Shown here: piece after piece, positions 2,285-46,800 of the stretch
Layout of the letters: each line of letters begins with the position of its first letter
Numbering within the stretch: the stretch's first letter is position 1
Source: a virus
Virus record (IMG/VR): IMGVR_UViG_3300033978_000724
Span: 1-64,000 of that record
DNA: 64,000 bases
Strand: one strand, 5' to 3'
Translations under genes and position numbers: made by a program
Notes under the pieces: generated by a model
Seen by the model: only the letters and a program-made list of their open reading frames with translations
Databases searched by the model: none
Told to the model about the DNA's origin: nothing

Positions 2285-2653
2285 ATGTTTAGTTTAGTCG
2301 CTCCATCACCCCAAAGATTTTATTTCGGGTGTGATGAATTAGGCAAAAAAGCCTCTGAATTAGCAGAGGTGATTGAGTCCTTGATCGGGCGGGATAAGTT
2401 AGTTTTCTATCGGTCCCGTTATAGTGAGGTTAGGTTCACGGATTTTAATAAATCGTTTGAGTTGCATCTGTACGAAATCACGGATAAAACGCAGATAGAT
2501 CAATTGATGCCTTGTGATAACGACTGTACTTCACTATTCTATTTGACGGATGTGGAGTCTTTTCTAAAGAGAACTAAATCTGACTCCGATGAGATGGAAT
2601 CGCTGTTGTCTGGATTGGAGATATTCACCGATTTCTTTGACAATGAATACTAA
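2285..2653 (+). CDS. Hypothetical protein
   Basis: 122-aa ORF with GAGGA RBS, followed by a terminator. Confidence 0.65.
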   Translation: MFSLVAPSPQRFYFGCDELGKKASELAEVIESLIGRDKLVFYRSRYSEVRFTDFNKSFELHLYEITDKTQIDQLMPCDNDCTSLFYLTDVESFLKRTKSDSDEMESLLSGLEIFTDFFDNEY

Positions 2654-2664
2654 ATAATCCCCTA

Positions 2665-2702
2665 AAAAAGAACCCTCTGATTTGTATCAGAGGGTTCTTT
2701 TT
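2665..2702. terminator. Bidirectional intrinsic terminator
   Basis: AAAAAGAACCCTCTGAT-ttgt-ATCAGAGGGTTCTTTTT inverted repeat between convergent genes. Confidence 0.85.
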
Positions 2703-3288
2703 ATTTCTGCCAGTTACTGACAACCTGTTTCATATAATTATTCCTATATGTCCATCCCCTTAAATGTTTCCATGCAGTAGGAGCGTTGGTATAAAAAGTT
2801 TGCTGGCAATTTAGCATACTCATCGCATCAGGTCGTTTCAAGCATCTAGCAGAAGTACCATTGATAATCATGTTGAAGTATGCCAGTTTTTCCGGACCAC
2901 CTAAATCCTTCGGGACTCTCAACCAGTAAGACTTATAGTATATTTCATAAACCTTTTTCTTCGACATAGTACATGGGTCCTTGTATCCGTATTCCCTAGC
3001 TCTACCAATCGTAATCCCCATGTATGTTCTGCCACCCCGGTCATGAGGATCGTTAGAACATTTATCGTCACCTTCCCACTTGATGATATGTGGCATAGCT
3101 CGGTTAAAGTCTGGATCATTAATACCCGTTTTGCTTGCGTCAACAGAGGTAGTAGAAGCAACAGCGACCGCTTTATTATGGCTAACATCCTTTGTTTCAC
3201 CTGGGGTTACAGAGCTGAATATAGAGTAAAAAATAATAAATTGTAAAGCTATTAAGATAAATTCTAGTCCGCAAAATTCTTTTTTCAT
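2701..3288 (-). CDS. Membrane-anchored glycoside hydrolase family 108 lysozyme
   Basis: IIKWEG..SNDPHDRGGRTYMGIT matches GH108 EGG..N.P.DRGG.T..GIT; C-terminal RGWTYR; N-terminal hydrophobic anchor; probable start MKKEF at 3288. Confidence 0.85.
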   Translation of the reverse strand: MKKEFCGLEFILIALQFIIFYSIFSSVTPGETKDVSHNKAVAVASTTSVDASKTGINDPDFNRAMPHIIKWEGDDKCSNDPHDRGGRTYMGITIGRAREYGYKDPCTMSKKKVYEIYYKSYWLRVPKDLGGPEKLAYFNMIINGTSARCLKRPDAMSMLNCQQTFYTNAPTAWKHLRGWTYRNNYMKQVVSNWQK

Positions 3289-3290
3289 AA

Positions 3291-3866
3291 TTAATACCAT
3301 CCCGGTAAAACTGTCAGTGGATTAACATTCTGTCCATTAACTTTAATTCCTATGTGTAAATGAGGTCCCGTGCTTCGCCCTGTCGTTCCTACCTTGGCTA
3401 TCACCTCACCTTGCCTTACTTTTTGCCCTTCCTTCACCAAAATACCGCCTGGCATAATGTGACAATATTGCACTAAGTACTTCCCTGAATGAACCTCGAC
3501 CGTATTACCACAAGCACTAATAAATCCTGTGGTTTTTACTACTCCAGAAAAGATAGATAAAATTGGTGTACCTTCGGCTGCACTTATGTCATGTCCGTCG
3601 TGGAATTGTTTTTTACCAGTAACTGAGTTTATTCTCCATCCATAACTAGTAGATTCACGTCCAGGCAATTCCATTTTTGCCAAAGGTAATATTGCTTTTT
3701 CGTTGGTTCTTTTGGCTTGGTTAGTAGTTGATGGCTGAGATTGGTTAGTGTCACCTAATATCAAACTTGCATTTCCCCACAACTGACCAACTAATACCAG
3801 ACACGATACTCCGATAAGAAGTTCTAACTTAAACTCAGTCCGATCATTATTGATTAATTTTTTCAT
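3291..3866 (-). CDS. Membrane-anchored M23 family peptidoglycan endopeptidase
   Basis: HDGHD (HxxxD), YCH and GRSTGPHLH (HxH) zinc motifs; N-terminal hydrophobic segment. Confidence 0.92.
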   Translation of the reverse strand: MKKLINNDRTEFKLELLIGVSCLVLVGQLWGNASLILGDTNQSQPSTTNQAKRTNEKAILPLAKMELPGRESTSYGWRINSVTGKKQFHDGHDISAAEGTPILSIFSGVVKTTGFISACGNTVEVHSGKYLVQYCHIMPGGILVKEGQKVRQGEVIAKVGTTGRSTGPHLHIGIKVNGQNVNPLTVLPGWY

Positions 3867-3869
3867 AGA

Positions 3870-4619
3870 TTACCTGCCTAAATCTTTAATTGAAATAATC
3901 GTGGTAGGAAATCTGAAACTTCTATCTTGCCTGTACGCTGGATCGGTGTAGATCGTTGCCATAAATTGTTCATGTCCTGATTGACTCACTAGGCAACCTT
4001 CAGACCAGTTCCTTACCGTTGTGCCAGCCCCCCGATGTTGATTCATGCCAAACAATCCATAATCAGGATGCCAACTTCTACCCTGGTCTTTTGTTCTCAT
4101 CACCGGAATACTGCCTACTTGTTGCAAAGCCCTCCTGCCTTTGTGATAACCTACAGCCCATGAGTTTAAGTATTGACCAGGATTCACGACGGGGTATCCT
4201 TTAGGATTAGGTGGATTATTCCAAGAGGGCTTCCCACCTTTGATTGTAGCAGGCGAATCATGCACTATTACCGGCTGATTATTTTTATAAGTAAGAAGTA
4301 ATCGGCGGTCGCTCCATTCGTTGATAGTTGATTCAAAGTTAGGATTAAAAACGTAAACTACATTTAATTCACCTGGTCCGGTCCTAATTTGAAAACCTTT
4401 CTTTTGCATCGCCGATACTAATATTGCGGGGTTTATCTTGCTGGAGACAGTTGTTTGTTGTGTCTCGCCAACTTGGCTGGCGGTTGTGGATTGAGATTGG
4501 TTAGCGTCACCTAATACCATTCCTTTATTTCCCCACAACTGCCCAGCCAAGAACAGACAAGATAATCCGATAAGGCATTCTAGTATGAATTCATATCGGT
4601 CATCGTTGAGCTGTTGCAT
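3870..4619 (-). CDS. Membrane-anchored putative peptidoglycan enzyme with YkuD/L,D-transpeptidase-like His...Cys motif
   Basis: FGMNQHRG...NWSEGC motif; N-terminus paralogous to that of the M23 protein; GGAG RBS before ATG 4619. Confidence 0.6.
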   Translation of the reverse strand: MQQLNDDRYEFILECLIGLSCLFLAGQLWGNKGMVLGDANQSQSTTASQVGETQQTTVSSKINPAILVSAMQKKGFQIRTGPGELNVVYVFNPNFESTINEWSDRRLLLTYKNNQPVIVHDSPATIKGGKPSWNNPPNPKGYPVVNPGQYLNSWAVGYHKGRRALQQVGSIPVMRTKDQGRSWHPDYGLFGMNQHRGAGTTVRNWSEGCLVSQSGHEQFMATIYTDPAYRQDRSFRFPTTIISIKDLGR

Positions 4620-4833
4620 ATCGCTCCAATAATGCTTTGATATTTCTGGCATTATTCCGATTCTGCCAACCACCGGGTAAAATTAATTTCACCTTTTTAG
4701 GATTAGTCGGTGATACCTCGAAATGGATAGATAAGTCGCCGCACTTTAATCCGTTATTTCCTATTGGTTCCGGGTTGTTGGTGATACCGGATGCTTTTAC
4801 TTTCTTTGCTAGGTCTTTTTGGATGTTATTCAT
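4600..4833 (-). CDS. Hypothetical protein
   Basis: Overlaps both neighbours in the operon. Confidence 0.55.
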   Translation of the reverse strand: MNNIQKDLAKKVKASGITNNPEPIGNNGLKCGDLSIHFEVSPTNPKKVKLILPGGWQNRNNARNIKALLERYATAQR

Positions 4834-5020
4834 TTGGTTTATTCTCTGGGTTTTTTATCGAACCTTTGTCGCAAAATGCCACGGCCCTCTTTACTTCTGC
4901 CTCGTTCTGAGGATTGGAAATATGACCAAAAAACTCTCCTGTATTATGGTAGAGAGGCCATGTATTCTGTTTCTCGTCAGAACAAACTGCGTAAGAATAT
5001 TTGCCTAAGATGGTTTTCAT
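4826..5020 (-). CDS. Hypothetical protein
   Basis: AGGAG RBS; tightly packed operon. Confidence 0.55.
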   Translation of the reverse strand: MKTILGKYSYAVCSDEKQNTWPLYHNTGEFFGHISNPQNEAEVKRAVAFCDKGSIKNPENKPNE

Positions 5021-5025
5021 TTGGT

Positions 5026-5217
5026 TTATTCTCCTATGTTTTTATTAGAAATATTTGATGTTACAGAGCCTGAAACGTGACCTCCTCTCACTATATTCCC
5101 TCTGAAATCGCCTGTTATATTCAGAGTGTTATCGTCTTGTTCTTGCTTCCTTTTTAGGATGTTTATTATCTCTTTAGCCTTGTTTATTAGTTCTTTTTGG
5201 TAGTTATCGTTATTCAT
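5026..5217 (-). CDS. Hypothetical protein
   Basis: ATGA overlap with the upstream gene; GGAG RBS. Confidence 0.55.
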   Translation of the reverse strand: MNNDNYQKELINKAKEIINILKRKQEQDDNTLNITGDFRGNIVRGGHVSGSVTSNISNKNIGE

Positions 5218-5513
5218 TCGTTTTGTTCTCCAATGTTGAATTTATATTGAATGCCCCACTTTCTATTTTTAGGCGAAGGACTAACACTCGGTGAAGGTTG
5301 TGGGGTTGGTGTTACCTGAACCGGAGGTGTTACTTTTTCTTTATCCTCTTTAGGTGTTGCCTGTTCTTTGGTTTGGATTACTTCCGGGGGGGCGATAGTA
5401 ACCTTTGGTAGGAACTTTAAAAACGGCAACCGAGGTCCTAATTGGGGGTGAAGCATTAAAACTATTGCTAGCGCTGTCAACGCCCCCAACATTTGGAATC
5501 CTGATCGGATCAT
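5214..5513 (-). CDS. Small membrane protein with Pro-rich linker
   Basis: Hydrophobic N-terminus LGALTALAIVLML; PTPQPSPSVSPSP; ATGA overlaps at both ends. Confidence 0.65.
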   Translation of the reverse strand: MIRSGFQMLGALTALAIVLMLHPQLGPRLPFLKFLPKVTIAPPEVIQTKEQATPKEDKEKVTPPVQVTPTPQPSPSVSPSPKNRKWGIQYKFNIGEQNE

Positions 5514-5779
5514 TCGTTTCCTGGATTTAATTCATCTAATGCTATTGCTTCTGGTAAAGGACCCCCGACGTTACCAGGAACAGAATAACGACCTAATTCA
5601 GGAGCGACTAGACGACTACCTCCACTCACAGCAATTAAAGGGACCTCTCCAAATGCTTTAAATGTGATCCCTACGCCGGCTAAAGCCTTATTAATAGGAC
5701 CGGAAAAGATATTGTAAATAGTACAACAAAAGAAAAAGATTGCCCAGTGCATAGGGTTTCCCCAATCAAAACTTCTCAT
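5510..5779 (-). CDS. Small membrane protein
   Basis: WAIFFFCCTIYNIF hydrophobic helix; starts 2 bp after the ATPase stop. Confidence 0.6.
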   Translation of the reverse strand: MRSFDWGNPMHWAIFFFCCTIYNIFSGPINKALAGVGITFKAFGEVPLIAVSGGSRLVAPELGRYSVPGNVGGPLPEAIALDELNPGNE

Positions 5780-5781
5780 TT

Positions 5782-7083
5782 TTATACCGCACTAATTTGA
5801 TTTAGATAACTTTGAATTTTTTTGAATCTTGGTGTTCCCCTGCGGACTTTAGGGGTTACACTCTCGGCAATCTCGGATGCACTGATGTTTTCAGTTTTAG
5901 CCCGCTCCAATAATTGCCAGTGTTCGATTGACCACTCTTGCCACCAAACTTCTGCGTCATCAACCTGAATATTTATCTGTGAAGATAAATCAGGCATATT
6001 GATCGCCCGGTTGGCTCCGTTAATCTGAATTAACCCGGCCCTTTGTTTGTCTTTGATTAGGTTAATAAAGTCGTTTTTAACTTCATCCCGATCTGTTATG
6101 TCTAAGTAGCCAAATTGTCTGCTATTGGGTAAGTCTTTGTAACCTAACCACAACTTGGAAGTTTGAGCGTTGGATGCCATAGGTAAGTTGGATGTTTTGA
6201 AATCATAAGATTGCATTCCTAATACCACTTTCATCTTTAACGCCCGTCCCTGCTGGAGCAATAACTGCACTTTGGGGACGATATTGTATTTAAGCTCCTC
6301 TTGTAGATCAGACTGAAGACTGTTAAACTCATCAATCACAATTAACATGGGATTAAATTCTAGGTAATCTACTTCGTTTTTTACGGCATCACGACAGATT
6401 TGTAATCGTTTCTTTAGTTCGTCATGGATCGCATCCATTGACTCGGCGATGTCAGATAAACTTGCCTTCCCATAATTCTTAGCTAGTCCTTTCCAGTTGT
6501 TAGGTTTTCCACTTGAATCAGGCTTACCAATATTTGAGTCTAAAATAATCAACTCACCATTAGGATTCTGGTCTAGCCAAAGAGAGATGACAAATTGCAT
6601 CACGGTAGTTTTACCACAACCAGAATTGCCTGCTACCGACTGATGGGGCGTTTCTAACCACTCCAAAATATCTTTATCGGTGGCTCTTAGTTTTTCACTC
6701 CTAGATGTGACTTTTAATTTTCTAGGGGCGAAGACTGCACCGGCTTCATCTTCAGTTGATTCAGAGGGTAATTCATCGGGTAATAATTCTTTTGGCTCGT
6801 CGGGTTCCTTTTCTTCTTTATAGGCTTTTTCTATGAGTGGAGATAACAATACTCCAACATTAACCAAACCTAAAACCAAACCTAATGTCTGGAATCCTCT
6901 ATAAGGGAAACCTCTCTGAATGCTTAGGTTATACCCTAGTTGTCCATTGGAAAAGTCAGGCTTAATAAACTTTTTTCCAACTTCGACAAAATCAACTGAT
7001 GGTAACAGTTGGCAACCTAAACCCAACGTGATAGCAGACACCGATCCAATATTATTTAGTAGTTTCTTTACTGGTATCTCCAT
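5782..7083 (-). CDS. Membrane-anchored FtsK/SpoIIIE/TraB-like (FtsK-HerA superfamily) ATPase
   Basis: Two N-terminal hydrophobic segments; HQSVAGNSGCGKTT Walker A; LIVIDEFNSL Walker B; LLQQGRALKMKVVLGMQ arginine-finger/Gln motif. Confidence 0.82.
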   Translation of the reverse strand: MEIPVKKLLNNIGSVSAITLGLGCQLLPSVDFVEVGKKFIKPDFSNGQLGYNLSIQRGFPYRGFQTLGLVLGLVNVGVLLSPLIEKAYKEEKEPDEPKELLPDELPSESTEDEAGAVFAPRKLKVTSRSEKLRATDKDILEWLETPHQSVAGNSGCGKTTVMQFVISLWLDQNPNGELIILDSNIGKPDSSGKPNNWKGLAKNYGKASLSDIAESMDAIHDELKKRLQICRDAVKNEVDYLEFNPMLIVIDEFNSLQSDLQEELKYNIVPKVQLLLQQGRALKMKVVLGMQSYDFKTSNLPMASNAQTSKLWLGYKDLPNSRQFGYLDITDRDEVKNDFINLIKDKQRAGLIQINGANRAINMPDLSSQINIQVDDAEVWWQEWSIEHWQLLERAKTENISASEIAESVTPKVRRGTPRFKKIQSYLNQISAV

Positions 7084-7858
7084 CTGTCCCTAATTCCTTA
7101 ATTGCTTCTTTTGTGTCATCTTTTAGGTTTTGCTCGGTCTCGACCTGTAACCGATTTTTTTCGATAGATTCCCATAATTGTCTTTGGGTTTCCATCTTTA
7201 GTTCAACGTCTAAATTGGCTGATTGATCAAGCAATTTACCGACCGACACCCTAGATACTAATACTTCAGGTGAAATATATTCTGATGGCGTATCACGGAT
7301 AAACTCTAATGCCAATACAACTGCTTTTAAATCTATAACCAAAGCTCTTGCTTTCTCAGCGTCTTCAGCTTTACCCGTATATTCGCCTCCTAGTCCTGAC
7401 ACAGAGTTTTTCGACCTAGACAATAACTCTTGTTTCATTTTTTCTCTCATCGTTGCTAGGTCCTGGTTTAACCAGTATTGCAACGTTTTTCCTTTGGATG
7501 ATACTGAGTTCATCGCTTTACCTAATAAGAAATTTCTTCTTGATAGGACGGCATAAGTAATCTGTTTATCTAATTCCTCGTTTAATAGAGTTATTGTGGC
7601 TGCTACTTTATCTGTTTCTTCTGGTACAGGTTCGGGTGATTCTTCCGGTACAGGACTAGCACTAACATCTGGTTTTTCTATCTCTCCAGGTACATTATTT
7701 AAAAACTTATTATTAGTAGAGGGATTTTTAAATAAATAAAATAAACCAAATACTAATACATTTAAACCAATAAACCCGCATAACAGAATAACCTTAGACT
7801 TCTTACCGAAAACAACTTTTACGGCTTTACCAGGCAACGCACTATGTTCTGATGTCAT
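7052..7858 (-). CDS. Bitopic membrane protein with Pro/Glu linker and coiled coils
   Basis: VILLCGFIGLNVLVFGLFYLF TM helix, then SPVPEESPEPVPEE and a helical region; probable ATG 7858. Confidence 0.7.
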   Translation of the reverse strand: MTSEHSALPGKAVKVVFGKKSKVILLCGFIGLNVLVFGLFYLFKNPSTNNKFLNNVPGEIEKPDVSASPVPEESPEPVPEETDKVAATITLLNEELDKQITYAVLSRRNFLLGKAMNSVSSKGKTLQYWLNQDLATMREKMKQELLSRSKNSVSGLGGEYTGKAEDAEKARALVIDLKAVVLALEFIRDTPSEYISPEVLVSRVSVGKLLDQSANLDVELKMETQRQLWESIEKNRLQVETEQNLKDDTKEAIKELGTDGDTSKETTK

Positions 7859-7973
7859 TTTGCACAACCCTCACTGCCGTTATATGTGCATCGTGCAATC
7901 TTCTATCTTCCCCCGGTTTAGGCGATTCGGGTACAGGAGGATTCAATAGTATTAAAAGAGCTAAAATAAGCAT
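7842..7973 (-). CDS. Unannotated 43-aa peptide with signal-like N-terminus
   Basis: MLILALLILLNPPVPESPKPGEDRRLHDAHITAVRVVQNDIRT; fills the operon gap and overlaps both neighbours; GAGGTG upstream. Confidence 0.55.
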   Translation of the reverse strand: MLILALLILLNPPVPESPKPGEDRRLHDAHITAVRVVQNDIRT

Positions 7974-8161
7974 GGCATAATCACCTCACATTTATAGTTA
8001 TTTTGGAATACTTCTTCTGCTGTAGGGACAGATAAACGGATGATATTCACCGCTTTTGCTACTTCTTTTAATCGTCCAAAAATATAGTCAATCATTTCAA
8101 TTTCCTCTTCTATTAATTCATTTTGTGGTGGGAGTAGATGCTTTGCTATTTCATCTAACAA
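7961..8161 (-). CDS. Hypothetical protein
   Basis: ORF within the operon; start codon uncertain. Confidence 0.5.
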   Translation of the reverse strand: MLDEIAKHLLPPQNELIEEEIEMIDYIFGRLKEVAKAVNIIRLSVPTAEEVFQNNYKCEVIMPCLF

Positions 8162-8175
8162 AGCATCTATGGTTT

Positions 8176-8700
8176 CTATTTGATGGATGGTAATAGGCTG
8201 GCAATCGCTCCTACAGGGGTGATCTGCGGGAGGTCCTGGATAAAATTTTCAGTTGCCTGGATTTGGCTGTTGACCTGGTTTTGAATCTCAGTCAACCGAT
8301 GAGCTATACCTCTTACATAAAGTGATGTAAAATCAACTTGATCTTGAGCCATTGTCTTAGCGAACTTTGAGACGAATTTAGCAGACGCTAGGTGTGCCAA
8401 GGATTCTGCATCATTCTCAACGGAATCAAATAAATTGTTTATCGCCTGAGTGGATTGCATCCCAGAAGCAGCGATGGTTTGCTCTAATCCTGCTGGCTGG
8501 CTTTTCTCTTGTTTAGCCTCTGGTTTTTGTTGGGGTGGTAAAGCTACGGATTCCTTAGCCTCGTTGATTTTGTTTATCACTTGTTCAGCTAAGTTATCGT
8601 CAACATTTTCACCCTGAAAAGGGATGTTTAATGCTTGTAATATCTGTTTTGTATCGGTGTTAGACTTGCCGATCTGTTTACCCAAATCTGTTATTTTCAC
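8176..8700 (-). CDS. Hypothetical protein, N-terminal HTH-like segment plus helical region
   Basis: MKITDLGKQIGKSNTDTKQILQALNI; GAGG RBS before GTG. Confidence 0.6.
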   Translation of the reverse strand: MKITDLGKQIGKSNTDTKQILQALNIPFQGENVDDNLAEQVINKINEAKESVALPPQQKPEAKQEKSQPAGLEQTIAASGMQSTQAINNLFDSVENDAESLAHLASAKFVSKFAKTMAQDQVDFTSLYVRGIAHRLTEIQNQVNSQIQATENFIQDLPQITPVGAIASLLPSIK

Positions 8701-8962
8701 TTTGAAATACCTCTATTGTTAATAAATGTTTATTCTTGGAAAGATAGTCATAAACCCTGGAACCCCTCAAACCCTTGCTATATAATTGTTTTAGCTTCTT
8801 TAAGCACCACAATTGATATTCTGTAATTGGTTGTCTGGCTCCCCCTCTTGCCTCGGCATAAGCCGGTATGGATAAAGTAAGTATCTGGTCATACCGTCTT
8901 AATGTTTTCTCTGATATTCCAATTAGTTTTTCAGCTTTATTTCTAGCGATGAAACCTATCAA
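8678..8962 (-). CDS. Putative MerR/excisionase-like HTH DNA-binding protein
   Basis: IARNKAEKLIGISEKTLRRYD; first gene of the operon; CAAAGGAT RBS. Confidence 0.55.
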   Translation of the reverse strand: MIGFIARNKAEKLIGISEKTLRRYDQILTLSIPAYAEARGGARQPITEYQLWCLKKLKQLYSKGLRGSRVYDYLSKNKHLLTIEVFQSENNRFG

Positions 8963-9266
8963 AATATCCTTTGGACAAGGGACGTAACGCTTAATAGCTT
9001 GATCCGTACTCGATCACCTCCTTTTGTCTCAACCCGGCATGAAACCGGCATCAAAATAGTCTAAAAAATCAACCTCTGGTTTCGGTTCGTGGGTGAAATC
9101 TATCTACTTTCACTTAATCCCTTCGGCTATGAAATTAGATTAGCACTACAAAAATATTTTTCAACATTTGTAGTTTCCTATTTTGCTATTTTCTAAAATC
9201 TATTTAAGTGGGTATCTATATTTATAGGAATATTGTTTAATGTTTTCAATACTTATAGGGATTTAT

Positions 9267-9440
9267 ATGGAAGAAGGACAAAAGACTAAAGCGTTGAATG
9301 TAGCCATACCAGAGGACATTCATACGGCCACGAAGTTCTTGGCACTAAGGGACAAGACGACAATGCAAGAGGTGACGACCAAAGCTCTCATCTCTTATCT
9401 GATAAAGAAGAAAGTATTTAATAAACCGCAGGAGCGATAA
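9267..9440 (+). CDS. Ribbon-helix-helix (ParG/CopG-like) regulator
   Basis: KALNVAIPEDIHTATKFLALRDKTTMQEVTTKALISYL fits the RHH pattern; divergent from the ATPase operon. Confidence 0.7.
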   Translation: MEEGQKTKALNVAIPEDIHTATKFLALRDKTTMQEVTTKALISYLIKKKVFNKPQER

Positions 9441-9487
9441 AAGTGGTAAAATCATTTTGAATAACACCATACAAAGGACGAATCAAA

Positions 9488-10606
9488 ATGAAATTCACTT
9501 GTTCGCAAGAAGACCTAAATGGTTGCTTATCTTTAGTTATTAAGGCTGTCCCTAGCCGGCCTAGTCATCCTGTTCTAGGGAATGTCCTGGTAAAAACATC
9601 TAAAGAACTTCAAATGGTCTGCATTACCGGCTTTGATTTAAGTTTGGGTATTCAGTCTGCTTTTAGTGCCGTAGTAGAAAAAGAAGGGACGTTAACTGTC
9701 CCTGCTAAATTGTTTATTGATATTATTTCTCGGATGGAAGGGAATTTATCTCTTGCTTTAGACTCTGAAGATGAAAGCCTGATCCACATAAAATCTGGAT
9801 CGGGTAAATATAACATCAGGGGAATAAGTGCCGATGAATTTCCTGAACTACCTGAGATAACAGGAGATCAAATTGAGTTGCCAGCCAAGGAATTAATAAA
9901 AGGATTAAAAGGGACTTTATTTTCTGCATCACCCGATGAGACTAAACAAGTTTTGACGGGTGTGCATATCGTTGTGACTCCAGATGAAATTGAGTTTGCT
10001 AGTACAGACGGCCATCGCCTAACACGGGTGCAAACACCTATTGAGGATGGTGCTGATCTTGCGATGACTATTCCTGCTAGGGCATTAAAAGAAGTAGAAA
10101 AGATGTTGTCGGCTAATTCTACCCTGGAGTCAGTGGCTATTAGATTTGATGATAGCCAAATCGTCTTTGAGATGGGAACTCAAAAGTTAACCAGTCGAAA
10201 ACTAGAGGGACAATACCCTGTTTATAATCAACTCATTCCCAATAAGTTCACCGGATCAATAACCCTAGATCGCAAGGCATTCTTGAGTAGTGCGGAGAGA
10301 ATCGGAGTATTAGCAGACCAACGGAATAATATTCTGAAATGTTCTATTAACCATGATTCTCAGTCTATTTCTTTATCTGTGGATGCCAAGGAAGTGGGCA
10401 ATGGGGAAGAATCGGTTGCTGTTCAATGTGACGGCGACCTCAAAGAAATAGCATTTAATATCAAGTACCTAACAGAGGGATTAAAGAGCCTTAATTGCTC
10501 TGAGGTACAAATCCAACTAAACACGGCGACAAGCCCTGTGGTGGTGAAACCATTAACCGGAGAAAAGATAATTTATTTGATTATGCCTGTACAACTTAGG
10601 AATTAA
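9488..10606 (+). CDS. dnaN: DNA polymerase III beta sliding clamp
   Basis: KAVPSRPSHPVLGNVL, TGFDLSLGI, STDGHRL, IAFNIKYL and YLIMPVQLR are typical of cyanobacterial DnaN. Confidence 0.97.
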   Translation: MKFTCSQEDLNGCLSLVIKAVPSRPSHPVLGNVLVKTSKELQMVCITGFDLSLGIQSAFSAVVEKEGTLTVPAKLFIDIISRMEGNLSLALDSEDESLIHIKSGSGKYNIRGISADEFPELPEITGDQIELPAKELIKGLKGTLFSASPDETKQVLTGVHIVVTPDEIEFASTDGHRLTRVQTPIEDGADLAMTIPARALKEVEKMLSANSTLESVAIRFDDSQIVFEMGTQKLTSRKLEGQYPVYNQLIPNKFTGSITLDRKAFLSSAERIGVLADQRNNILKCSINHDSQSISLSVDAKEVGNGEESVAVQCDGDLKEIAFNIKYLTEGLKSLNCSEVQIQLNTATSPVVVKPLTGEKIIYLIMPVQLRN

Positions 10607-37454: not shown

Positions 37455-37888
37455 GCAACATTGCTAATTATTTTTCTGATACAGCTATGACAATCAAGTC
37501 TAGCTGTATTTCTAATTTAAAGGATTTATTAACTACTTATACTTTACCTAGTGGTGTGATAGTAGATGCTATTGCTATTAATCCTATTTTAGGTAACGAT
37601 GTATTCCCGCCAGAAGGTACTAAAACAGGTGAGGGAATAGAGGTTGTTCTTTATTATCCTGAAGCGAGAGTCAACCAAATATTAGCAGGGTACTCACGTG
37701 ATTATTTATGGCAAATATACCTTAAACAATGGGATTTAAAAAGTGATACGTTAGAGGCATCGGAGTTATTAATTGATGCTTTACCTTATCAGGTTAAAAA
37801 TTGTTTTAGAAATAGACAAAATAGCTTGTTAAATCAGCCTGAAATATGTAAGATAGAAGTAATTATTGGTATTGCGGGGAGTTGGTAA
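37451..37888 (+). CDS. Putative tail terminator protein
   Basis: 145 aa, WQIYLKQWD, ATGA overlap, just before the tape measure gene. Confidence 0.55.
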   Translation: MSNIANYFSDTAMTIKSSCISNLKDLLTTYTLPSGVIVDAIAINPILGNDVFPPEGTKTGEGIEVVLYYPEARVNQILAGYSRDYLWQIYLKQWDLKSDTLEASELLIDALPYQVKNCFRNRQNSLLNQPEICKIEVIIGIAGSW

Positions 37889-37890
37889 TT

Positions 37891-40800
37891 ATGGTTATGG
37901 TAGGTGGCGTTGAGATTGCTGTTGAGTTAAACCTTGAGGGAATAGAGGAAGCCCTAAGAGATTTACACGAAAGGATTAAAAGTACATCTTTTTATGTTGA
38001 TGTAAAATATAACGCTACGCAACAAGGTAGTACAAAGCAAAGGCAATCACAGCCAACGTCTCGCAATCAAGTCCAACCATTTGCCGACACATCGAATAGA
38101 TTGTCTAATAGCATGAACGCTATTGGTAATATAAACTCAAAGGGGTTTGAGTCTTTACAAAGAGACTTAAGAAATCTATCTTCAACAATAGATAAGAGTT
38201 CTAGTAATACGCTATCTACTTCTAGTAACAAATTAAGCAATATTTCTAATATATTAGAGAAAGGGCATCGAGATATTTCTAGTGTATTCCAGAAAACATC
38301 AGAGCAGTCGTCAAAACAAATAAGTAGCCAGGTTAAAAAATCAGCTAGATATAGTTTAATAAAAGAAGTAAAAACGGCCGCAACACAAGGTCTTATTTAC
38401 AATACTTTCTTCCAAGAAGGTATTGATATGATGGGGAACAAGATAACGTCTAGCGTCCTTAAAAAAGCAGGTAGAGCGGTAAGAAAAGCAGAGGTCCCAT
38501 TAAGACTAATGGGAATGGGGAACGTGCCTGATAATTTTGACAAGGTACAAAAAAGGGCTGATGAATACGCTGGGCAAGTGACGCAGTTAATCAAAACCCC
38601 AGAGTTTGAAAAGAATGCAAAAGAAGCCTTTGAGACAATTAAATTGGCTTTTGTTTCGGCGACAAGTGACTCGTCTGATTTTTCAGGGTCTATACATGAA
38701 TTGGCGGTAGAGTCAAGGCAATCTTTCTCTCAATTGAAGTCGGCTATAAACGGAGTCCTTGATGGATTAACAAGTACAGCAAGTCAAGTAGAAGGTTTTG
38801 CTCAATTAGACGAGTTATCTAATTCTTTTAGCGACATAGTTGATGCAACAGAAGAGAACAGAGATGACATAGACAACTTTCTTACTGCGTACAGGGTCAA
38901 GCTAAAAGAGTTTTTATCTCAGCTACAAGATGGAGGGAATGAAGATTTAGACTTGTCATCTGTTAGTAAAGTAGCAGATGGGTTGTCAGTAACACTAAAC
39001 AGGCTGAATAGATCAATAAAGCAAAGGAGCGAAAAGACAGGGACAGCTTTTGTTACGTTAGAGCAGGCTATCCAAAAAACGAGTGAAGTATTTAGCAAGA
39101 CAGTATCTGAAACCAGAAAAAAACAGATAGGAAATACCATACAAGAGGTGGTTGATAAAAAAGAAACGGCACAAGGTTTTAATACAGAAGGGAAACCAGG
39201 TGTAGTGGTTTATTTGCCTGGGTTTGGTATAGAACCTGACGAAGCATTGCAGAAAAAAATAGAGTCCTTGACTGACACAGAGAACCAAGCATTAAATATA
39301 AGAACGTCTCCAGAGTTAGATCGGGATAGCAAACTAAAAGGAGGAAAGAATGACAATGCCCTTCAGTATGCTTATCGTGCTTTAAATACGAACCTAACTA
39401 ATTATTCGTCATTAACGACTGAAGTAATTGCAGACATAGTAAAAACGGTAGAAGACAACCCGGATTTAAAAGACGTAACAATAGTGGCTCATAGCCTTGG
39501 AGGGGCAATAGCCAGGGAAATAATAGAAGTTGTTAATACAATTGATTTAGTCAAAATAATAAAAGATTCGCTTGGTCGAGATATTACTATAAGCGGGCTG
39601 TCTTATGGTACGGCCACAATGGGATTAGCGAAACCTGTCGAGAATGCTCCCGACCCTAACAACCCTAACTTTGAATCTGTTTTATCACTAGATGATGCGG
39701 TGGCAAAAGTAGGGTTATTTAATCAAGGCTCTGTTAGATTTCCAGGGTTGCCACTTGAATCAACAGGTGGTGGACTACCAGGACATTCAACTGATGAATA
39801 CCTAGGAGGGCAAACTATAAGAGAATATATGCAGTCTAAGGTGCAGGTAGGGGTTGCACCAAAAGCAAAAGATGCCTCATCACTCCCGGATTCGCAAGCA
39901 GGAAAAGTATTAGAAGAATATAAAAAAGAATTGGAAAAAAGGACTATTCCTAAATTAAAAGATATTGTTTTTCAGTTAGGCATTAATCAGCAAAAAAACA
40001 AAGCACTATACATCGAAAAAATATTAGAAAGAAGCACAGAAGAAATAGATAATGCGATACTGGAGGCCGAAGGACGCAAAGATATGGCTCCTGTCACAAA
40101 AGAAAAAGAAGCATATATCTTGGACTTACTGCATGGGATGGAGTCGTCTGTAGATAAACAGCTACATGGGATGAAAAGTATTCCTGCGGACGACACAGAG
40201 AAAGGGTTAAAGATAATTGAAGAAGCCCAAAAAGCTATTGAGGCAATCAAGAAAGAACAAAGAGAGAATGTCTTTTCGCCATCAGCGTCAAAGCAATTAC
40301 AGGGTTATTTGCTTCACCTGAGAGGCAATATTAAACGAGTATCAAAAATGTTGCCAGCAGGCACATTAGAGAAGGCTGCTACAAAAAAACAAGAAGCATT
40401 ATTCAAAAAAGAAAGTGGCGTTTTATTTAACTCTTTAGCCGAAGTAGGAAAAAATATCACGCAAGGTCTGGAGTCAGGTATAGATATAGACGAAGTAGCT
40501 GACATGGGGATGTTGATTGGCGACACAATAACAGAAGCTACAAAAGACAGCTTAGATATTCACTCTCCAGCCGGTGAATTTGAAGAAATAGGCGAGAATA
40601 TAGGGGCCGGTTTAATACAAGGGTTGTCGTCTTTAGATGAGGTGGCTGTTGTTATACAGGATAAGATGGCGGCGATATTAGAACAAACAAATCGTCAGAT
40701 AGAAAAAAATAAAGAGATGTTTACCCTGGCATCTTATTTACGGGACGTAGATGCTAAGAGGAGTTCAAATTTATCCGCAGATATAAATAGTCTAACGTCT

Positions 40801-43800
40801 AATTTTGACCCGGCTGAGATAGAGAAAGAAATAGTAGAGAAAGAAGAACAGTACGGACGAAATAACAAAGGTATCCCCTCTTTATCTGATCTCTCTCAAT
40901 ATGTCGAGAAAAAGAATGTAATACCATCTCTATCTCAAGTCTCTAATTCCTTAAAAAAAAGAGAACCTTTGCCTACGGCATTAACCGAACCAGGTCCTGA
41001 CGTAATCTTTCCGCCATTCAAAGAAAAAATGGCTAGTGGTGTCCCTACATTGAAAGAAGTTGCCAATATATTAATCCAAAGAAAAGCGTCTGACGATGTA
41101 AGATTAGCCAAAACACTAGAGACCACATTTAAGTTGTTGTACAACAGGAATAAACAAAGAACACAAGACCCTGATTATTTGCCTGGAGATTACTTTGGAT
41201 CAAAAGAAGTAGATGCGTCTATGAAGGAGATAGAAAAAACTTTTGCGGGGGTAAAAAGAAAAGAAGAAGAAATACGGATGGCAAATGAGGAGGCAAAGAA
41301 AGAATTAGTGACCTTCACGGGGATAGTCTCTGCTACGAATCAAATATTAGAGAAGAAGACAAAGCAATCACTTCAGAACGCTGATCGAAATAGGGCGAGA
41401 CAATCGGCTGGTTTTGTTGAAAAAACAAGAAGCAGGGCCGGCATTGAAAGTATGCTTGGCTTAGAGGAGTCTCCTGATTTTGAGGAAATCGCAAAAGAGA
41501 TAGAAGAAAAAGAAAAGGAATGGCTTTCTGATATAGCAAAACTGTCAGATCAGGAGATGGACGCTAAATGGGAAAAGAAAGGAGTTTTAAAAGAGCAAAG
41601 CCAAACCCCGGTAAAACCACAGGGACTAACCGGGATGCCTGCTATTATGATGGCATTAAAACAGATTGAAAAACAACGGACTAAAGCGTTTGCAGAGAGT
41701 CTAACAAGAGAGTTAAAAGATTGGGATAAAGCAATAGAAGACTTGGAATTCACACAGATACTGGAGGACGCTAACTCTATAGTAGAAGAAATCTCTGACG
41801 CTTTTGCATCTGTTGTTATTGACAATTCTCCTGTCTTAGAGTCTCTTGATGACACAACAGAAGCAATAGAAAAATCATGGGATGAAATAGCATGGGTATT
41901 TAATAGAGTCGGTAGCACTATAGCAAATATAGATACAAAACCATTATTGGAGTTGGAGGATGGGTTGGCTAGTGCAGACATAAATACGTTGACTGATTCA
42001 TTGATTCAGATCGTAGATGGATACAAAGAAGCACAAGAAGAGACTAGCGTCGTAGCCCAATCAAATCCAACCAAAAAGACAAAAGGACGACCTTCTTTTA
42101 CAGAAATATTGGCCAGTAATTCAGCCTATATAGATGTGTGGGCAAAAACAAAAAAAGGAAAGAGAGACAGAGAAAAGCTAAATAGCGTAGAGAAAAGATC
42201 GCCTCTTAGTCGGTTGCTAAGTCAAATGGATGATGAGACTTTAGCCCACACCAGAGAAGTCAGCAAGAATGGGAAAAAAATATCATTAAAGTTCTTACCT
42301 GATAGAAAATTCTTTAAGCAATACGAAGAGAAGTTGAAGGCTATAGGAATTACTGACAGAAAAGAAATGTTTGATATATTCCAAGATGTTAGGGCTGGGA
42401 ATGTGGAGTGGTTAGCAAATCACATACAGAATAGCATGCTAGACGTTAAATCAAATAATCCAGAAGACTATAAGAAAAAAATAAAAGAATTACTTAAACA
42501 AGCGAAAGTAACAAAAGATGAAGCAGAAGGAATAATAGAGTTTTACATGAACTCTGGCAGCTGGAGTTTAAACAGACAAGAGAAAATGAAAAATACAAAA
42601 GGGAATCCTCTTGATGCTGTGGCACAGTTTTACGCTGAAAACAATGAAAGACTAAATGAAATAAAAAAACAGAAATCATTAACCCGAAGAGCCGGTCGAG
42701 CCGCTGGTAACTTAGTTAAAAACCGAGTAGGAAAACCTTTAGCCACCTTTGGCAAAAACAGAATAGTTGATCCATTGGCAAATACAAGAGCCGGTCAAAA
42801 AATAAAAGAAATCAGAGAGGACAGGAAAAAGAAAAACTCTTTTGAAGAGATAGACCCGTCGAAATTGTCACCTAAAAAAGTAGAAGAATACTTAAGGAAG
42901 TATGCAGATAGAACATCAGAACTAGCACCGGAAAAACTAGCAGAACTGACGGAAATAGCTGAAGAATATTTGGCTGATAAGTTCATGAAAGAGTTGAACT
43001 TAGACGCTATTTGGGACAAGATAATGATAGACAAAATGGACTTCAAAGATTTGGAGACCGTTCAATTTGCTTATTTGATGCAGTCAAAACAATCGGCAGA
43101 AGTAGCAAAGAAAACCTTTGAATCCTCTAAAACATACGATGCTATCGTCAAGGGATTTGACTCTTTTGTTCATGAGTGGATGCCAAATAAAGTAAAAGAA
43201 ACACTGAAAAAAGCAGAAGAGTTTTTCAGTAAAACAGAAGGGGGAAGGAAACTTGTTGACGGGGCAAAAGGTTTATACAAGACACTAGATAATTTGCAAG
43301 TCATATCGGCGGTCAAAGGTGCTGGTAAATTACTAGGTGCATCATTTAGTAAGATATATCAAGGATTGTTTATGATTATCGCCCCCATCACCGGGTTGGG
43401 CATTGTATTGGCATCACAAGCTGCGGTGATTGCGAGAGAGGTAGTTGAATCACCTCTATTGAGAGCTTTTGGGTCTGACATCATGGATGTTCTTGGTACT
43501 ATATTTGGGACGATAGCAGGGGACTTTAGAAAGTTAAGTTTGATGTTCCTTAATACTCCTTTTGGGAAGGTACTAGGTGAGACAGCGACAGGCATATTCT
43601 CTTTTCTGAAGGAAAGTGCAAAAGGCATAAAAGAGTTTATAGCTAAACCTGACTTCATAAAGTTATTTGGTGGGATGGAAAGCATCAAGGAAAATATAAG
43701 AAATTCCCCTATCGTAAAGTATGTAGCGGAGTCGCCTGTTGGTCAATATGTAAAAAAACGTGCGAGACCTGCTGTTAAATTCGTGAGAGACTCTGCCTGG

Positions 43801-46800
43801 GGGTCTGAGGATAAACCAGGATTTTTCCGTCCCGCACAGATTTGGTCTGTAGCAAAAATAGCTTTAGCCGCTAAGTTAATTAGTGACTACAAAGACGAAT
43901 TAATAGAAATGGGGATGGCATCTATTAAGGTGGCACAAGAGTTTCAGGTATTAGGGAAAACATTAGAGTTTATCACGGGAGGAACAAAAGAGGGGGCTAA
44001 AAAGCTAGAGGAATTAAGAAACTTGGCTAACAGTGTCGGGGTAGAAATCACTCCTTTAGTTGGTTCGTATAATCAGTTAGCAGCTGCCACTCGATTAACT
44101 CCAATGGAAGGACAGGTCACAGACGATATGATCGAGGGTATTGTCAGGATGGGGGCAACGTTTGGATTGTCAACAGAGCAGATACACGGGTCTATTAATG
44201 CTATAGCACAGATAGCAGGTAAAGGCGTTGTATCAGCGGAGGAATTACGAGGGCAGTTAGCAGAAAGAATACCAGGTGCTTTTCAGTCGGCGGCTAGGGC
44301 AATGAAAATGACTGAAAAAGAATTGTATCAGTTGATGTCAACAGGTAAATTGACAGCTAATGAGTTTATTACACTATTTGGGCCTCAGCTAATAAAAGAG
44401 TCTGCTTTTGCTGAGGGGCAGGTGACTACATCTATTGCTAACTTAAATAGGCTGAAAAACCAAGTGACAGAAGTTCAATTAGCTGCAGGAAAAGCGTTAA
44501 CGCCACTTTTTGACTTTGGGGTAAGAATAGCATCAGCGGGAATCGAAGCAGGGAAATTCGTTTTTGGCTTACTGAAAATGACAGTAGTAAATCAGCTTGT
44601 CTCTGGATTGATAGGTGCTTGGCCGTTGGCTAAATTTGTGGGAACAGTTGCTCTTTTAAAAACATTAGCCGAATCTATTAGTCTTTTTGGGGCTGGGGTA
44701 ACACTTTATCTAACTACTACAGGAATATCGCTGAAGGCATTTTTAATGGGAATAGCGAAAAGTATCGCAGTGATAATGGCACAGGCATTAGTGGCATGGG
44801 CGGTCATGAGTCAGGCTACTAAGATGATAGAGGCATGGGAAATGCAGTTTAGCAACAAACATAGTGTGTATAAAGTGTGGGCTGACAACGTTGAATCAAA
44901 CGCAAAGAGAGTAAAGAAGGCAATGGAAAGTGTTTCTTCTAAGGACGTAAAGGTAGTGCTGCCAGAGGTAGAAAATAGAAACAAGATAACTAAAACAGGA
45001 AACTGGATAACTGACTTTTTATCTATAAACCCCGACCAAGCTCAACACGTTATCAAGAGACTGAATGCGAAAAGAAAACGGCAAGGAAAAGCTGAGATGA
45101 CACCAGAAGAAGTTGATGCAATGTACGAAAACTTTAACACGGGCAATATCGTTAACATTAGCGGGGTACAAGAAGCCACCTATAGAGATATGATAATGAG
45201 AGGGGAAAGACAAGAACAATCAGACAGTCTTTTCTTTAAGCCAATTCAGTCAGCATTAGAAAGTTACAATATCAGCGGTGCAGGGGTATTAAAAACAATA
45301 TCTGATATAGATAAACAAATTAGTTTATTAGAGGCTAAAAAAGCAATCTTAGACCCTGCTGATGTTAATACAGCTAAGGCAATATCAGAGGAAATAAAAG
45401 GATTAAAGAAAAACAAAGAGGATTTAATTAATCCACTAGATGCCTCCGAACAGGGTTTAAAACAGTCATTAAAAGATAATGAAAAAATAATTAGTGATTA
45501 TGAAAAAGCATTAATAAACCAATCATCTCCAGATGAAAAGATCAGAAAAGAAGCCGACGCTTTATTGCAAAAACCAGGTATGGATAAATCTAGTATTAGT
45601 TTGGTCAGAGCGGAAATAGCTAACACTAAAAAGACACTTGACTCTTATGCAGAAGCTACGGCTAAATCAGGTGCTATTAGTAATACTAAAAAGTTAGCTA
45701 TGGCATTGATGGAATTGAGTGTGGCATTTTCTTCTGTCGAAAAGAGAATAGGAGAGATCCATACTGGCAAGCTAAAAGGCATAGCCCAAGCACAGGTAAA
45801 AGGATTTAGTACTGACCGATTTAATACTACAAATACAGGACTAAGAACGGCGGAGGAAAACTATAACCACACTCAGCGGATGTTAAAAGAAAGAAAATCT
45901 ACTATAGCAAAACTAGAAGAAGACTTGGCATTAAATCCAACAAAGGCATCAGCAGATCAATTGATCGCCAATCAAGAGGCTATTAAAAAGAGAAAATTAA
46001 CAAGTGAGGAAATAACACAACTAGCAGAGTTATATGGCGGTGAGGGGCAAGAGAAGTTAAAACAGGCACTAGATTCTGAAGCAGCGTTGAGAGAAGAAAA
46101 GTTAAAAAACCTCGACTTAGAAAAACAATCTGTAGATGATATTTACAATATCAGGCAAGCCAGACAAGCCCACTATCTAGCCATCTACGAAGATGCTATA
46201 GATGAAATAAAACAATTAGACCAACGCAATCTAAGCAATGCTATGACCGGAGCAAATAACGTATTGGCTAGAGGGTTACGGTCTGATTTAGGGGCAGAGG
46301 ATGCTTTTAATGTGAAGGCAACAGGGATGCAATATATTAAGGTACAAAAAGACATAGAAAATAATGCCTTAGCAATGAAGAGCCTAAAACAGGCTTACTT
46401 TGAAGGGAAGGAAAGTTTAGAACAATATACAACTAAGAGCCGGGCGTTATTAACAGAAGACGCACAACTAAAACAACAATTAGTTGAGCAAGAGATAGCC
46501 TATATTAGGGCTGTATCTCAAGCCAGAATGAACGCATTACAACGAATCAAAGAAAGTCGTGATGCTAATACAGAGATAGCTAATTCTGGCAGAACAAAAG
46601 CTATCACACAAAACTCTATTAGTAAGTTTAGGACTGATGAGTTCTTAACCAATAACGAGTCATTAGCTCAAGCCAAAAATGGATTAGTAGAAATACAAAA
46701 CCAACTTAAAAACACTAAATCAGAGTTGTCTGAATTAGAAGAGGCTTATGCGGGAGGAAAAGGTCCTTTATTATTAAATGAATACATCCAAAAGAAACGC

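Follow-up and report, generated by a model that had tools for sequence, protein, structure and literature searches.

Why does a tailed phage carry, in one run of genes, an FtsK-like membrane ATPase together with small membrane proteins and enzymes that cut peptidoglycan? This question is raised by IMG/VR record IMGVR_UViG_3300033978_000724, which comes from lake-water metagenomes and of which we analyzed the first 64 kb (the window; positions refer to it unless the full record is named). The full record is 97,031 bp long with direct terminal repeats and is estimated to be 79% complete, and this completeness applies to all the whole-record absence searches reported below. From the sequence alone, the genes between 8962 and 2701 had been predicted to form a DNA spreading system. 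In our analysis, the region is best explained as a conserved envelope module that belongs to mobile elements of filamentous cyanobacteria and is carried here on a tailed phage. The module is an operon-like block in which the motor is invariably accompanied by a bitopic membrane protein, by small membrane proteins (one to three of them), and by two membrane-anchored wall enzymes, an M23 peptidase and a glycan-strand cutter. It looks like borrowed DNA-transfer machinery.

A membrane-anchored motor with a TcpA-like fold

In an AF2 model built from a 67-sequence alignment (pLDDT of 86.7), the ATPase begins with two transmembrane (TM) helices, TM1 (residues 5 to 25) and TM2 (62 to 92), which enclose a periplasmic β loop (30 to 58). 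A disordered acidic linker (97 to 118) leads to the RecA-type motor (126 to 375), and a four-helix domain (376 to 432) ends the protein. An 8-sequence alignment gave a model with a pLDDT of 52, which was not used. The motor has the Walker A motif GNSGCGKTT, the Walker B motif VIDEF, and the motif GRAxxMKVVLGMQS. The Gly-Lys of Walker A and the Glu of Walker B are invariant across the 67 relatives, and the GRG/A...K...Q motif is retained in the closer ones.

The sequence matches PHROG 1358, "FtsK/SpoIIIE-like," over the P-loop core (E of 2.5e-13), and the best NCBIfam matches are EssC (E of 1e-8) and EccC (E of 2e-6). Pfam models do not capture the family: the ATPase gave generic P-loop matches, all below threshold, and FtsK_SpoIIIE (PF01580) did not match it at an E of ≤0.1 and matched 3 of the 67 relatives at an E of ≤1e-3. 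A sequence search against PDB returned nothing significant. By structure, the best match is TcpA, the coupling protein of pCW3 conjugation (Foldseek E of 3.5e-9), and Foldseek and an independent all-against-all aligner agree in placing TcpA first. The VIA aligner gave a Z score of 18.8 for TcpA, with a root mean square deviation of 3.8 over 230 residues, followed by FtsK (Z of 16.7) and EccC (Z of 16.0), the EssC/EccC domains ranging from 14.5 to 16. The two N-terminal helices and the FtsK-type motor fold bear out the original prediction of a 2-TM FtsK-family ATPase, and in the fold comparison proposed there TcpA ranked ahead of FtsK. On this model, the protein is predicted to be a cell-membrane-anchored, hexamer-type motor of the FtsK clade, with a fold closest to TcpA.

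The same comparisons bear on another reading, in which an EssC/EccC-like ATPase and the bitopic and small membrane proteins would form a protein-export machine for the wall enzymes or other small proteins, an ATP-gated substitute for a holin. Besides the NCBIfam ranking, the EssC/EccC domains nearly equal FtsK in fold score, and the gene set (a 2-TM FtsK-like ATPase, bitopic proteins, and proteins of about 60 to 100 amino acids [aa]) may loosely recall type VIIb loci. A 55-aa N-terminal module common to two of the wall enzymes (see below) could be a recognition tag. We consider export improbable, as the DNA motors TcpA and FtsK outscore the secretion ATPases and the window protein is a single 433-aa ATPase with no FHA and no tandem domains. 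The enzymes, moreover, have N-terminal membrane helices of their own and could use Sec. The C-terminal four-helix domain is conserved in the family and matches Pfam HTH_73 (a helix-turn-helix [HTH] model) weakly in three of nine members (E of 0.007), which fits DNA better than protein as the substrate.

An exhaustive profile search among 1.8 billion proteins found 171 representatives of the ATPase family at an E of ≤1e-3, mostly 420 to 500 aa long. In the family tree, the window clade and the clade of Planktothrix phage PaV-LD are separate lineages inside one well-supported group, and the plasmid clade is distant. One member, P0016, is labelled by NCBI as an Actinomycetota metagenome-assembled genome; this reflects either mis-binning of a contig from a phage or plasmid or an extension of the family into a second filamentous phylum.

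The ATPase matches the PADLOC model mad8 weakly (E of 1.9e-7), and the module is present on mobile elements only. Both points would suit a competition or exclusion device, in which motor and wall enzymes block or expel the DNA of rival phages or plasmids or remodel the wall against superinfection. The match is limited to the generic P-loop region, though, and no further component of any PADLOC system was matched. An active membrane-tethered M23 enzyme plus a muramidase would also be an odd choice for exclusion, and we regard such a device as very improbable.

The module recurs on phages and virion-free plasmids

Searching the proteins of phage and plasmid records, we found the ATPase in PaV-LD and on two plasmids of Oscillatoria acuminata PCC 6304, and in PLSDB it was found on these two plasmids only. 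In both PaV-LD and the plasmids the genes follow one order: a small 2-TM protein, a bitopic protein of 250 to 364 aa, the 2-TM ATPase, one to three small membrane proteins, an anchored M23 enzyme, and GH108. Further loci with the same block are PaV-LD-like IMG/VR contigs, contigs of Laspinema and Oscillatoria genomes, and three more cyanobacterial genomes. The loci examined were the window, PaV-LD, three IMG/VR kin, the two O. acuminata plasmids, two Laspinema contigs, and genomes G160, G085, and G214. The core, made up of the bitopic protein, the 2-TM ATPase, small membrane proteins, the anchored M23 enzyme, and an anchored glycan cutter, was found in 11 of 11 loci. Thus, the homologs of the ATPase are linked to membrane and hydrolase genes, on virion-free plasmids too, and the original prediction, which would fail without such linkage, holds on this point. 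Relatives of the window clade were not found among the viral contigs or metagenome contigs searched. The Anabaena phage YongM2 was not counted as a carrier, its ATPase similarity being weak (E of 6e-6) with no hydrolase annotated within 6 kb.

Syntenic bitopic proteins of 250 to 364 aa precede the ATPase in all loci, and a small membrane protein directly follows it in all. In the window, the gene of the bitopic protein, whose presence in the operon had been predicted and agrees with its TM helix and helical remainder, overlaps the ATPase gene by 32 nucleotides (nt). Its sequence relatives are confined to the window's clade, its similarity to the syntenic counterparts is weak (E of 0.001 to 0.8), and the ESM Atlas gave no usable lead. 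A complex prediction of ATPase residues 1 to 130 with the bitopic protein, run without controls, scored 0.00. The 99-aa membrane protein is the positional and compositional counterpart of an 81- to 83-aa TM plus Pro-rich protein on the Oscillatoria plasmids.

Linkage of this kind could also come about if two functions lay side by side. The 3' half would then be an ordinary lysis cassette of holin and signal-anchored endolysins, the ATPase and the bitopic protein would do an unrelated intracellular job, such as segregating or organizing replicating DNA at the membrane, and shared phage or phage-plasmid ancestry would account for the adjacency. We think this somewhat unlikely, although the majority of the loci are phage-like and FtsK-like phage genes of unknown role are common, PHROG 1358 itself being filed as "moron." In G160, and also on the Oscillatoria plasmids, the gene directly upstream of the module encodes ParM, which fits a role of the ATPase in DNA maintenance. 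The ParM-like actin of G160 (L032 6619-7656) is 30% identical to that of the Oscillatoria plasmid (E of 6e-39). The same 85-kb contig encodes tail-collar proteins, a tail sheath, and a 558-aa protein with a C-terminal M23 domain that matches lipoprotein-precursor and tape-measure PHROGs as well (L032 15498-18690, L042 1508-8959), making this element a possible phage-plasmid.

Against two independent functions, the virion-free plasmids retain an intact anchored M23 plus GH108 beside the ATPase, fused there into one 375-aa anchored protein. Plasmid pOSCIL6304.02, which carries ParA and ParM along with a primase-type replicase, an integrase, and a MOBP relaxase, is free of virion genes; a purely lytic role does not fit there. 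The relaxase is found on one of the two Oscillatoria plasmids, 32 kb from the module, and none is annotated on the other. The linkage has also survived divergence of the ATPases to 24 to 33% identity and an exchange of enzymes: in G085 and G214 an anchored SLT lytic transglycosylase (L033 6710-7363 and L034 7322-7990) stands in place of GH108 while the anchored M23 enzyme is kept, which points to selection for a pair of activities. Presumably, PrgK, CwlT, and TcpG likewise pair a peptidase with a glycan-cutting activity. Finally, the module of G085 lies at the end of a Mu-like transposable prophage (L033 1-1284, L038 10286-19841) with an rve plus Mu HTH transposase, a second transposase protein, a ParB-like protein, and TerL. 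The entire block precedes the Mu-type transposase genes in the same orientation and so occupies the position of an early operon.

The anchored wall enzymes

Two of the wall enzymes predicted in the operon, M23 and GH108, are confirmed by their Pfam matches (Table 1). The M23 protein retains the H-x3-D and H-L-H motifs and is the sole M23 of the 97-kb record, and in GH108 the W-E-G and D-R-G-G-R-T motifs are intact, so that both look catalytically competent from their sequences. GH108 has homologs in PaV-LD ORF122 and in the Oscillatoria M23-GH108 fusion, there in the C-terminal half. For the third enzyme, originally called YkuD-like, the evidence is weaker. It matches PHROG 3000 of unknown function (1.3e-17) and PHROG 33083, "endolysin" (2e-7), has an H...S-x-G-C motif, and gave a weak atlas lead to Tlde1_dom at 0.78, and it has no Pfam match and no significant PDB match. 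It is a possible L,D-transpeptidase/Tlde1-like wall enzyme.

As predicted, each of the three enzymes has one N-terminal hydrophobic membrane helix. M23 and the PHROG 3000 protein have homologous anchors, which are 55% identical over 55 residues (E of 6e-23) and are encoded by a 138-nt direct repeat with 74% identity at 3716-3853 and 4472-4609. Here an anchor module has been duplicated or swapped between two unrelated enzymes. One tag common to all three was considered and rejected, as the GH108 anchor could not be aligned.

The M23 enzyme of PaV-LD (ORF123, 41% identical to that of the window) and the neighboring ORF124 "holin" lyse or inhibit Escherichia coli and Synechocystis, an effect that needs their membrane helices (PMC9096620). 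No T4-lysozyme (PF00959), amidase_2 (PF01510), SLT (PF01464), or second M23 was found in the 97-kb record. As these families gave no further lysin, the hydrolase end very likely serves as the lysis cassette of the phage, whatever else its role. Both observations agree with side-by-side functions; the lysis-cassette and transfer readings are compatible, not exclusive. The original prediction saw no clear holin, a view that has to be qualified: both small membrane proteins are candidates, the 89-aa protein as a possible holin or partner and the 99-aa protein as a possible holin or Spd-like partner. Neither resembles PaV-LD ORF124 by BLAST.

Operon layout and control regions

The 14 minus-strand ORFs between 8962 and 2701 (Table 1) overlap or lie ≤14 nt apart, as expected from the prediction of 14 co-oriented, tightly packed genes. 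With genes overlapping or abutting throughout, there is no room for a separate promoter region, and promoter-like sites are not in excess across the block (19 found versus 18.5 expected from shuffled sequence). Both points speak against a separately controlled lysis cassette beside an unrelated ATPase. The bidirectional terminator predicted at the end of the operon is supported by its inverted repeat, its A and T runs, and its folding energy (−24.9 kcal/mol, z of −6.06); a consensus terminator scan did not list this hairpin.

In the divergent intergenic region, the 11-nt repeat TCAAACCGGCA occurs in 2.5 copies at 9029-9055 and is, judging by its sequence and position, a likely operator. Of the two HTH-like proteins predicted at the start of the operon, the 94-aa protein has a sub-threshold MerR match (E of 0.005) and the other has no match. 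The divergent 66-aa gene is present as predicted, its assignment as a ribbon-helix-helix (RHH) regulator resting on a sequence pattern. PDB sequence searches with the HTH-like and RHH-like proteins gave nothing significant.

A 22- to 37-nt repeat (D3/D5) in three copies (4825-4846, 5012-5033, and 5209-5230) spans the ribosome-binding sites and first codons of the three small soluble ORFs. Two of the three proteins begin with MNN..QK-[DE]-L, and the three may be a small paralogous family.

Table 1. Coordinates of the module and its flanking features in the window
Feature	Position	Strand	Description
DnaN	9488-10606		DNA polymerase III beta clamp; cyanobacterial, identity up to 59%
RHH-like protein	9240-9440	+	66 aa; divergently transcribed, upstream of dnaN
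Divergent intergenic region	8963-9239		277 nt between operon and 66-aa gene plus dnaN; likely promoter/operator
ORFs 1 and 2	8678-8962, 8176-8700 (together 8176-8962)	-	First two operon genes; 94-aa HTH-like protein and 174-aa protein without family
ORFs 3 and 4	7961-8161, 7842-7973 (together 7842-8161)	-	Two small putative ORFs, 66 aa and 43 aa (hydrophobic N terminus); coding status uncertain
ORF 5, bitopic protein	7052-7867	-	268 to 271 aa; short basic N terminus, TM 23-47, Pro/Glu-rich linker, helical C-terminal part outside cell membrane
ORF 6, ATPase	5782-7083	-	433 aa; 2-TM FtsK/TcpA-like
ORF 7, small hydrophobic protein	5510-5779	-	89 aa; directly after ATPase
ORF 8, small membrane protein	5214-5513	-	99 aa; N-terminal helix, then Pro/Thr/Ser-rich tail
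ORFs 9 to 11	5026-5217, 4826-5020, 4600-4833 (together 4600-5217)	-	Three small soluble ORFs, 63, 64, and 77 aa; without family match
ORF 12, PHROG 3000 protein	3870-4673	-	267 aa; membrane anchored; start more likely M19, coordinate 4619
ORF 13, M23 metallo-endopeptidase	3291-3866	-	191 aa; membrane anchored; Pfam PF01551 1.5e-26; TM 12-30
ORF 14, GH108 muramidase	2701-3300	-	199 aa; membrane anchored; Pfam PF05838 7e-14; PHROG 315 endolysin; TM 8-33
Intrinsic terminator	2665-2702		Bidirectional; closes operon and convergent gene 2285-2653; perfect 17-bp inverted repeat, 4-nt loop, A run and T run

Probable filamentous hosts

We surveyed 401 cyanobacterial genomes for the ATPase with a threshold of an E of ≤1e-20. 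It was found in four genomes, all of them positive for HetR (Pfam PF03574), compared with 101 of the 401 overall (hypergeometric p of about 0.004, and 0.015 without the center genome, both uncorrected for phylogeny). To our knowledge, HetR is essentially confined to filamentous cyanobacteria, and its presence is in line with the filamentous rather than unicellular hosts expected by the original prediction. The ten best matches of the window DnaN among the 401 genomes are all HetR positive, and the window TerL is nearest to those of phages of Cylindrospermopsis and Nodularia. Because of these DnaN and TerL similarities, the host of the window phage is likely filamentous.

The FtsK gamma domain (PF09397) is absent from five module-bearing genomes (G001, G002, G085, G160, and G214), and these hosts seem to be without a canonical sequence-reading FtsK; therefore, the motor is not a copy of the host FtsK. 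Synechococcus elongatus is likewise not among the FtsK gamma-positive control genomes.

The phage and its missing conjugation partners

An HK97-type major capsid protein, a portal protein, and the large terminase (TerL) are encoded in the window. The element is therefore a tailed phage with the usual means of DNA packaging, and the earlier statement that it has its own TerL was correct. The capsid gene (33135) is about 24 kb from the module, which adjoins regulators and dnaN. Consistent with the original prediction, neither a relaxase (PF03432) nor VirB4 (PF12846, PF03135) was found in the 97-kb record, and the phage record also has no counterpart of the VirB6-like TcpH. By tblastn, the phage has no homolog of the ParM, ParA, integrase, or ParB of the plasmid and prophage versions.

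Downstream of the head genes, a single ORF of 3,813 aa (37882-49323) presumably encodes a giant tape-measure or tail protein. A 1,253-aa replicase (full record 90241-94002) has weak homology (E of 4e-12) to a DUF5906-type primase-helicase of the Laspinema contigs, which are the counterparts of the Oscillatoria plasmids, and is thus a second gene in common with the plasmid backbone.

Septal DNA transfer as the favored function

Taken together, a motor from a membrane DNA-motor clade, its linked membrane partners and hydrolase pair, carriage on mobile elements only, and the lack of a relaxase and VirB4 lead us to favor septal double-stranded DNA transfer of the TraB/TcpA kind as the function of the module. 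By analogy with these systems, such a function is conceivable, and we hold it tentatively, at a little below an even chance.

Several observations weigh against it. The fold of the ATPase is also close to those of the protein-secretion ATPases EssC and EccC, and its C-terminal domain has no PDB profile match and no significant match to a DNA-binding fold. Beyond the 11-nt repeat, a search of 2600-9500 for arrays of short repeats, which would miss a dispersed site, gave nothing clt-like. The ATPase family is rare (4 of 401 cyanobacterial genomes; 171 representatives in 1.8 billion proteins). Most contexts are phage or phage-like (the window clade, the PaV-LD clade, the Mu-like prophage, and the contractile-tail element), with one plasmid lineage known. 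With the lytic M23 enzyme of PaV-LD (PMC9096620) and no other lysin found, lysis alone can explain the hydrolases of the phage. Of the spreading system originally proposed, then, the FtsK/TcpA fold, the linkage in all loci, and the HetR bias stand, whereas a clt-like array was not found in or beside the operon, a C-terminal DNA-binding domain is weakly indicated, and the hydrolases are very probably lytic.

If the module does transfer DNA, the motor would sit in the cytoplasmic membrane, probably at the cell-cell septum, and would pump the double-stranded DNA of the element out of the cell. Its helical C-terminal domain would select the DNA, the bitopic and small membrane proteins would form or line the passage, and the anchored hydrolases would make local openings in the septal peptidoglycan. 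These hydrolases would very probably also carry out lysis at the end of the phage cycle, perhaps with one of the small membrane proteins as holin. In filamentous cyanobacteria, the outer membrane stays out of the septum; therefore, only two cytoplasmic membranes and one wall layer would have to be crossed. This is the same crossing problem as in Streptomyces TraB/Spd transfer or Gram-positive conjugation, and it would explain a monoderm-like gene set in a diderm host.

A broader claim can be made by analogy: that a tailed cyanophage, and plasmids of the same hosts, pass their double-stranded DNA genomes directly to neighboring cells of the filament through their own FtsK/TraB-like pump and a locally opened septal wall, without virions. 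We consider this doubtful. If it were true, one adsorption event could yield several productive cells or a carrier state of the whole filament, and for tailed phages this would be the first description of a conjugation-like route of spread that is independent of virions. It would also mean that transfer systems of the TraB/TcpA kind exist in a diderm phylum and that multicellularity shapes mobile elements in yet another way, with a bearing on bloom ecology. If the block is a mere lysis cassette with a passenger ATPase, the result adds a modest annotation to a rare protein family.

Comparison with known systems

The closest known relative is the ORF129L-ORF122L block of Planktothrix phage PaV-LD (HQ683709), which has a small 2-TM protein, a 269-aa bitopic protein, a 475-aa 2-TM "FtsK/SpoIIIE" ATPase, three small proteins, an anchored M23, and GH108. 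Identities to the window proteins are 41% for M23 (ORF123), 29% for the ATPase, and 32% for GH108. The window differs in its extra anchored PHROG 3000 enzyme, its three extra small soluble ORFs, the duplicated anchor on two enzymes, and the lack of a detectable ORF124 homolog; the ATPases belong to separate clades, and the phages have few other genes in common.

TcpA of Clostridium perfringens pCW3 (PDB 6o1w/6o1x) shares with the window ATPase a pair of membrane helices at the N terminus ahead of a single FtsK-like domain, and it is the best structural match to the motor. TcpA-type systems also have a membrane-anchored wall hydrolase in the same locus, which in the window family is M23 plus either GH108 or SLT at all 11 loci. 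As partners in such systems, we take TcpA of pCW3 to go with TcpG/TcpI, ConQ of ICEBs1 with CwlT, and pCF10 to have PrgK, these being hydrolases that are anchored and combine a peptidase with a glycan-cutting activity. The phage differs from pCW3 in having no VirB4-like TcpF, VirB6-like TcpH, or relaxase, in the 16% identity of its motor to TcpA, in its diderm host, and in its tailed-phage carrier.

The Streptomyces TraB/clt/Spd system (PMC4447253) is alike in its single FtsK-like membrane motor without relaxase or VirB4, its small membrane proteins, and its carriage by elements of multicellular filamentous hosts. In the phage, the absence of relaxase and VirB4 shows that these partners are missing, not that the motor is sufficient. 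In contrast to the Streptomyces system, no clt-type repeat array was found in or beside the operon of the phage, and a C-terminal winged helix is hinted at by the weak HTH_73 matches. We know of no TraB system with dedicated M23/GH108 enzymes.

The FtsK/SpoIIIE septal translocases resemble the window ATPase in motor fold (the Z score of 16.7 being to E. coli FtsK), in membrane anchoring, and in the septal action proposed here; the window protein has two instead of four membrane helices, no evident FtsK gamma domain, no PF01580 match, and a gene on a mobile element. Phage "moron" genes of PHROG 1358 are alike in sequence over the P-loop core, but their profiles have about 1,380 positions, and no link to anchored hydrolases is described. 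In type VII secretion, the EssC/EccC proteins begin with FHA or DUF domains and carry FtsK-like ATPase domains in tandem, two to four of them, whereas the window protein has one ATPase domain and a 2-TM hairpin as its N terminus. With a canonical phage lysis cassette, the module shares the peptidoglycan-degrading M23 and GH108 enzymes, and its membrane proteins of 89 and 99 aa are possible holins; unlike such a cassette, it is not confined to viruses and is also found on the virion-free plasmids of O. acuminata.

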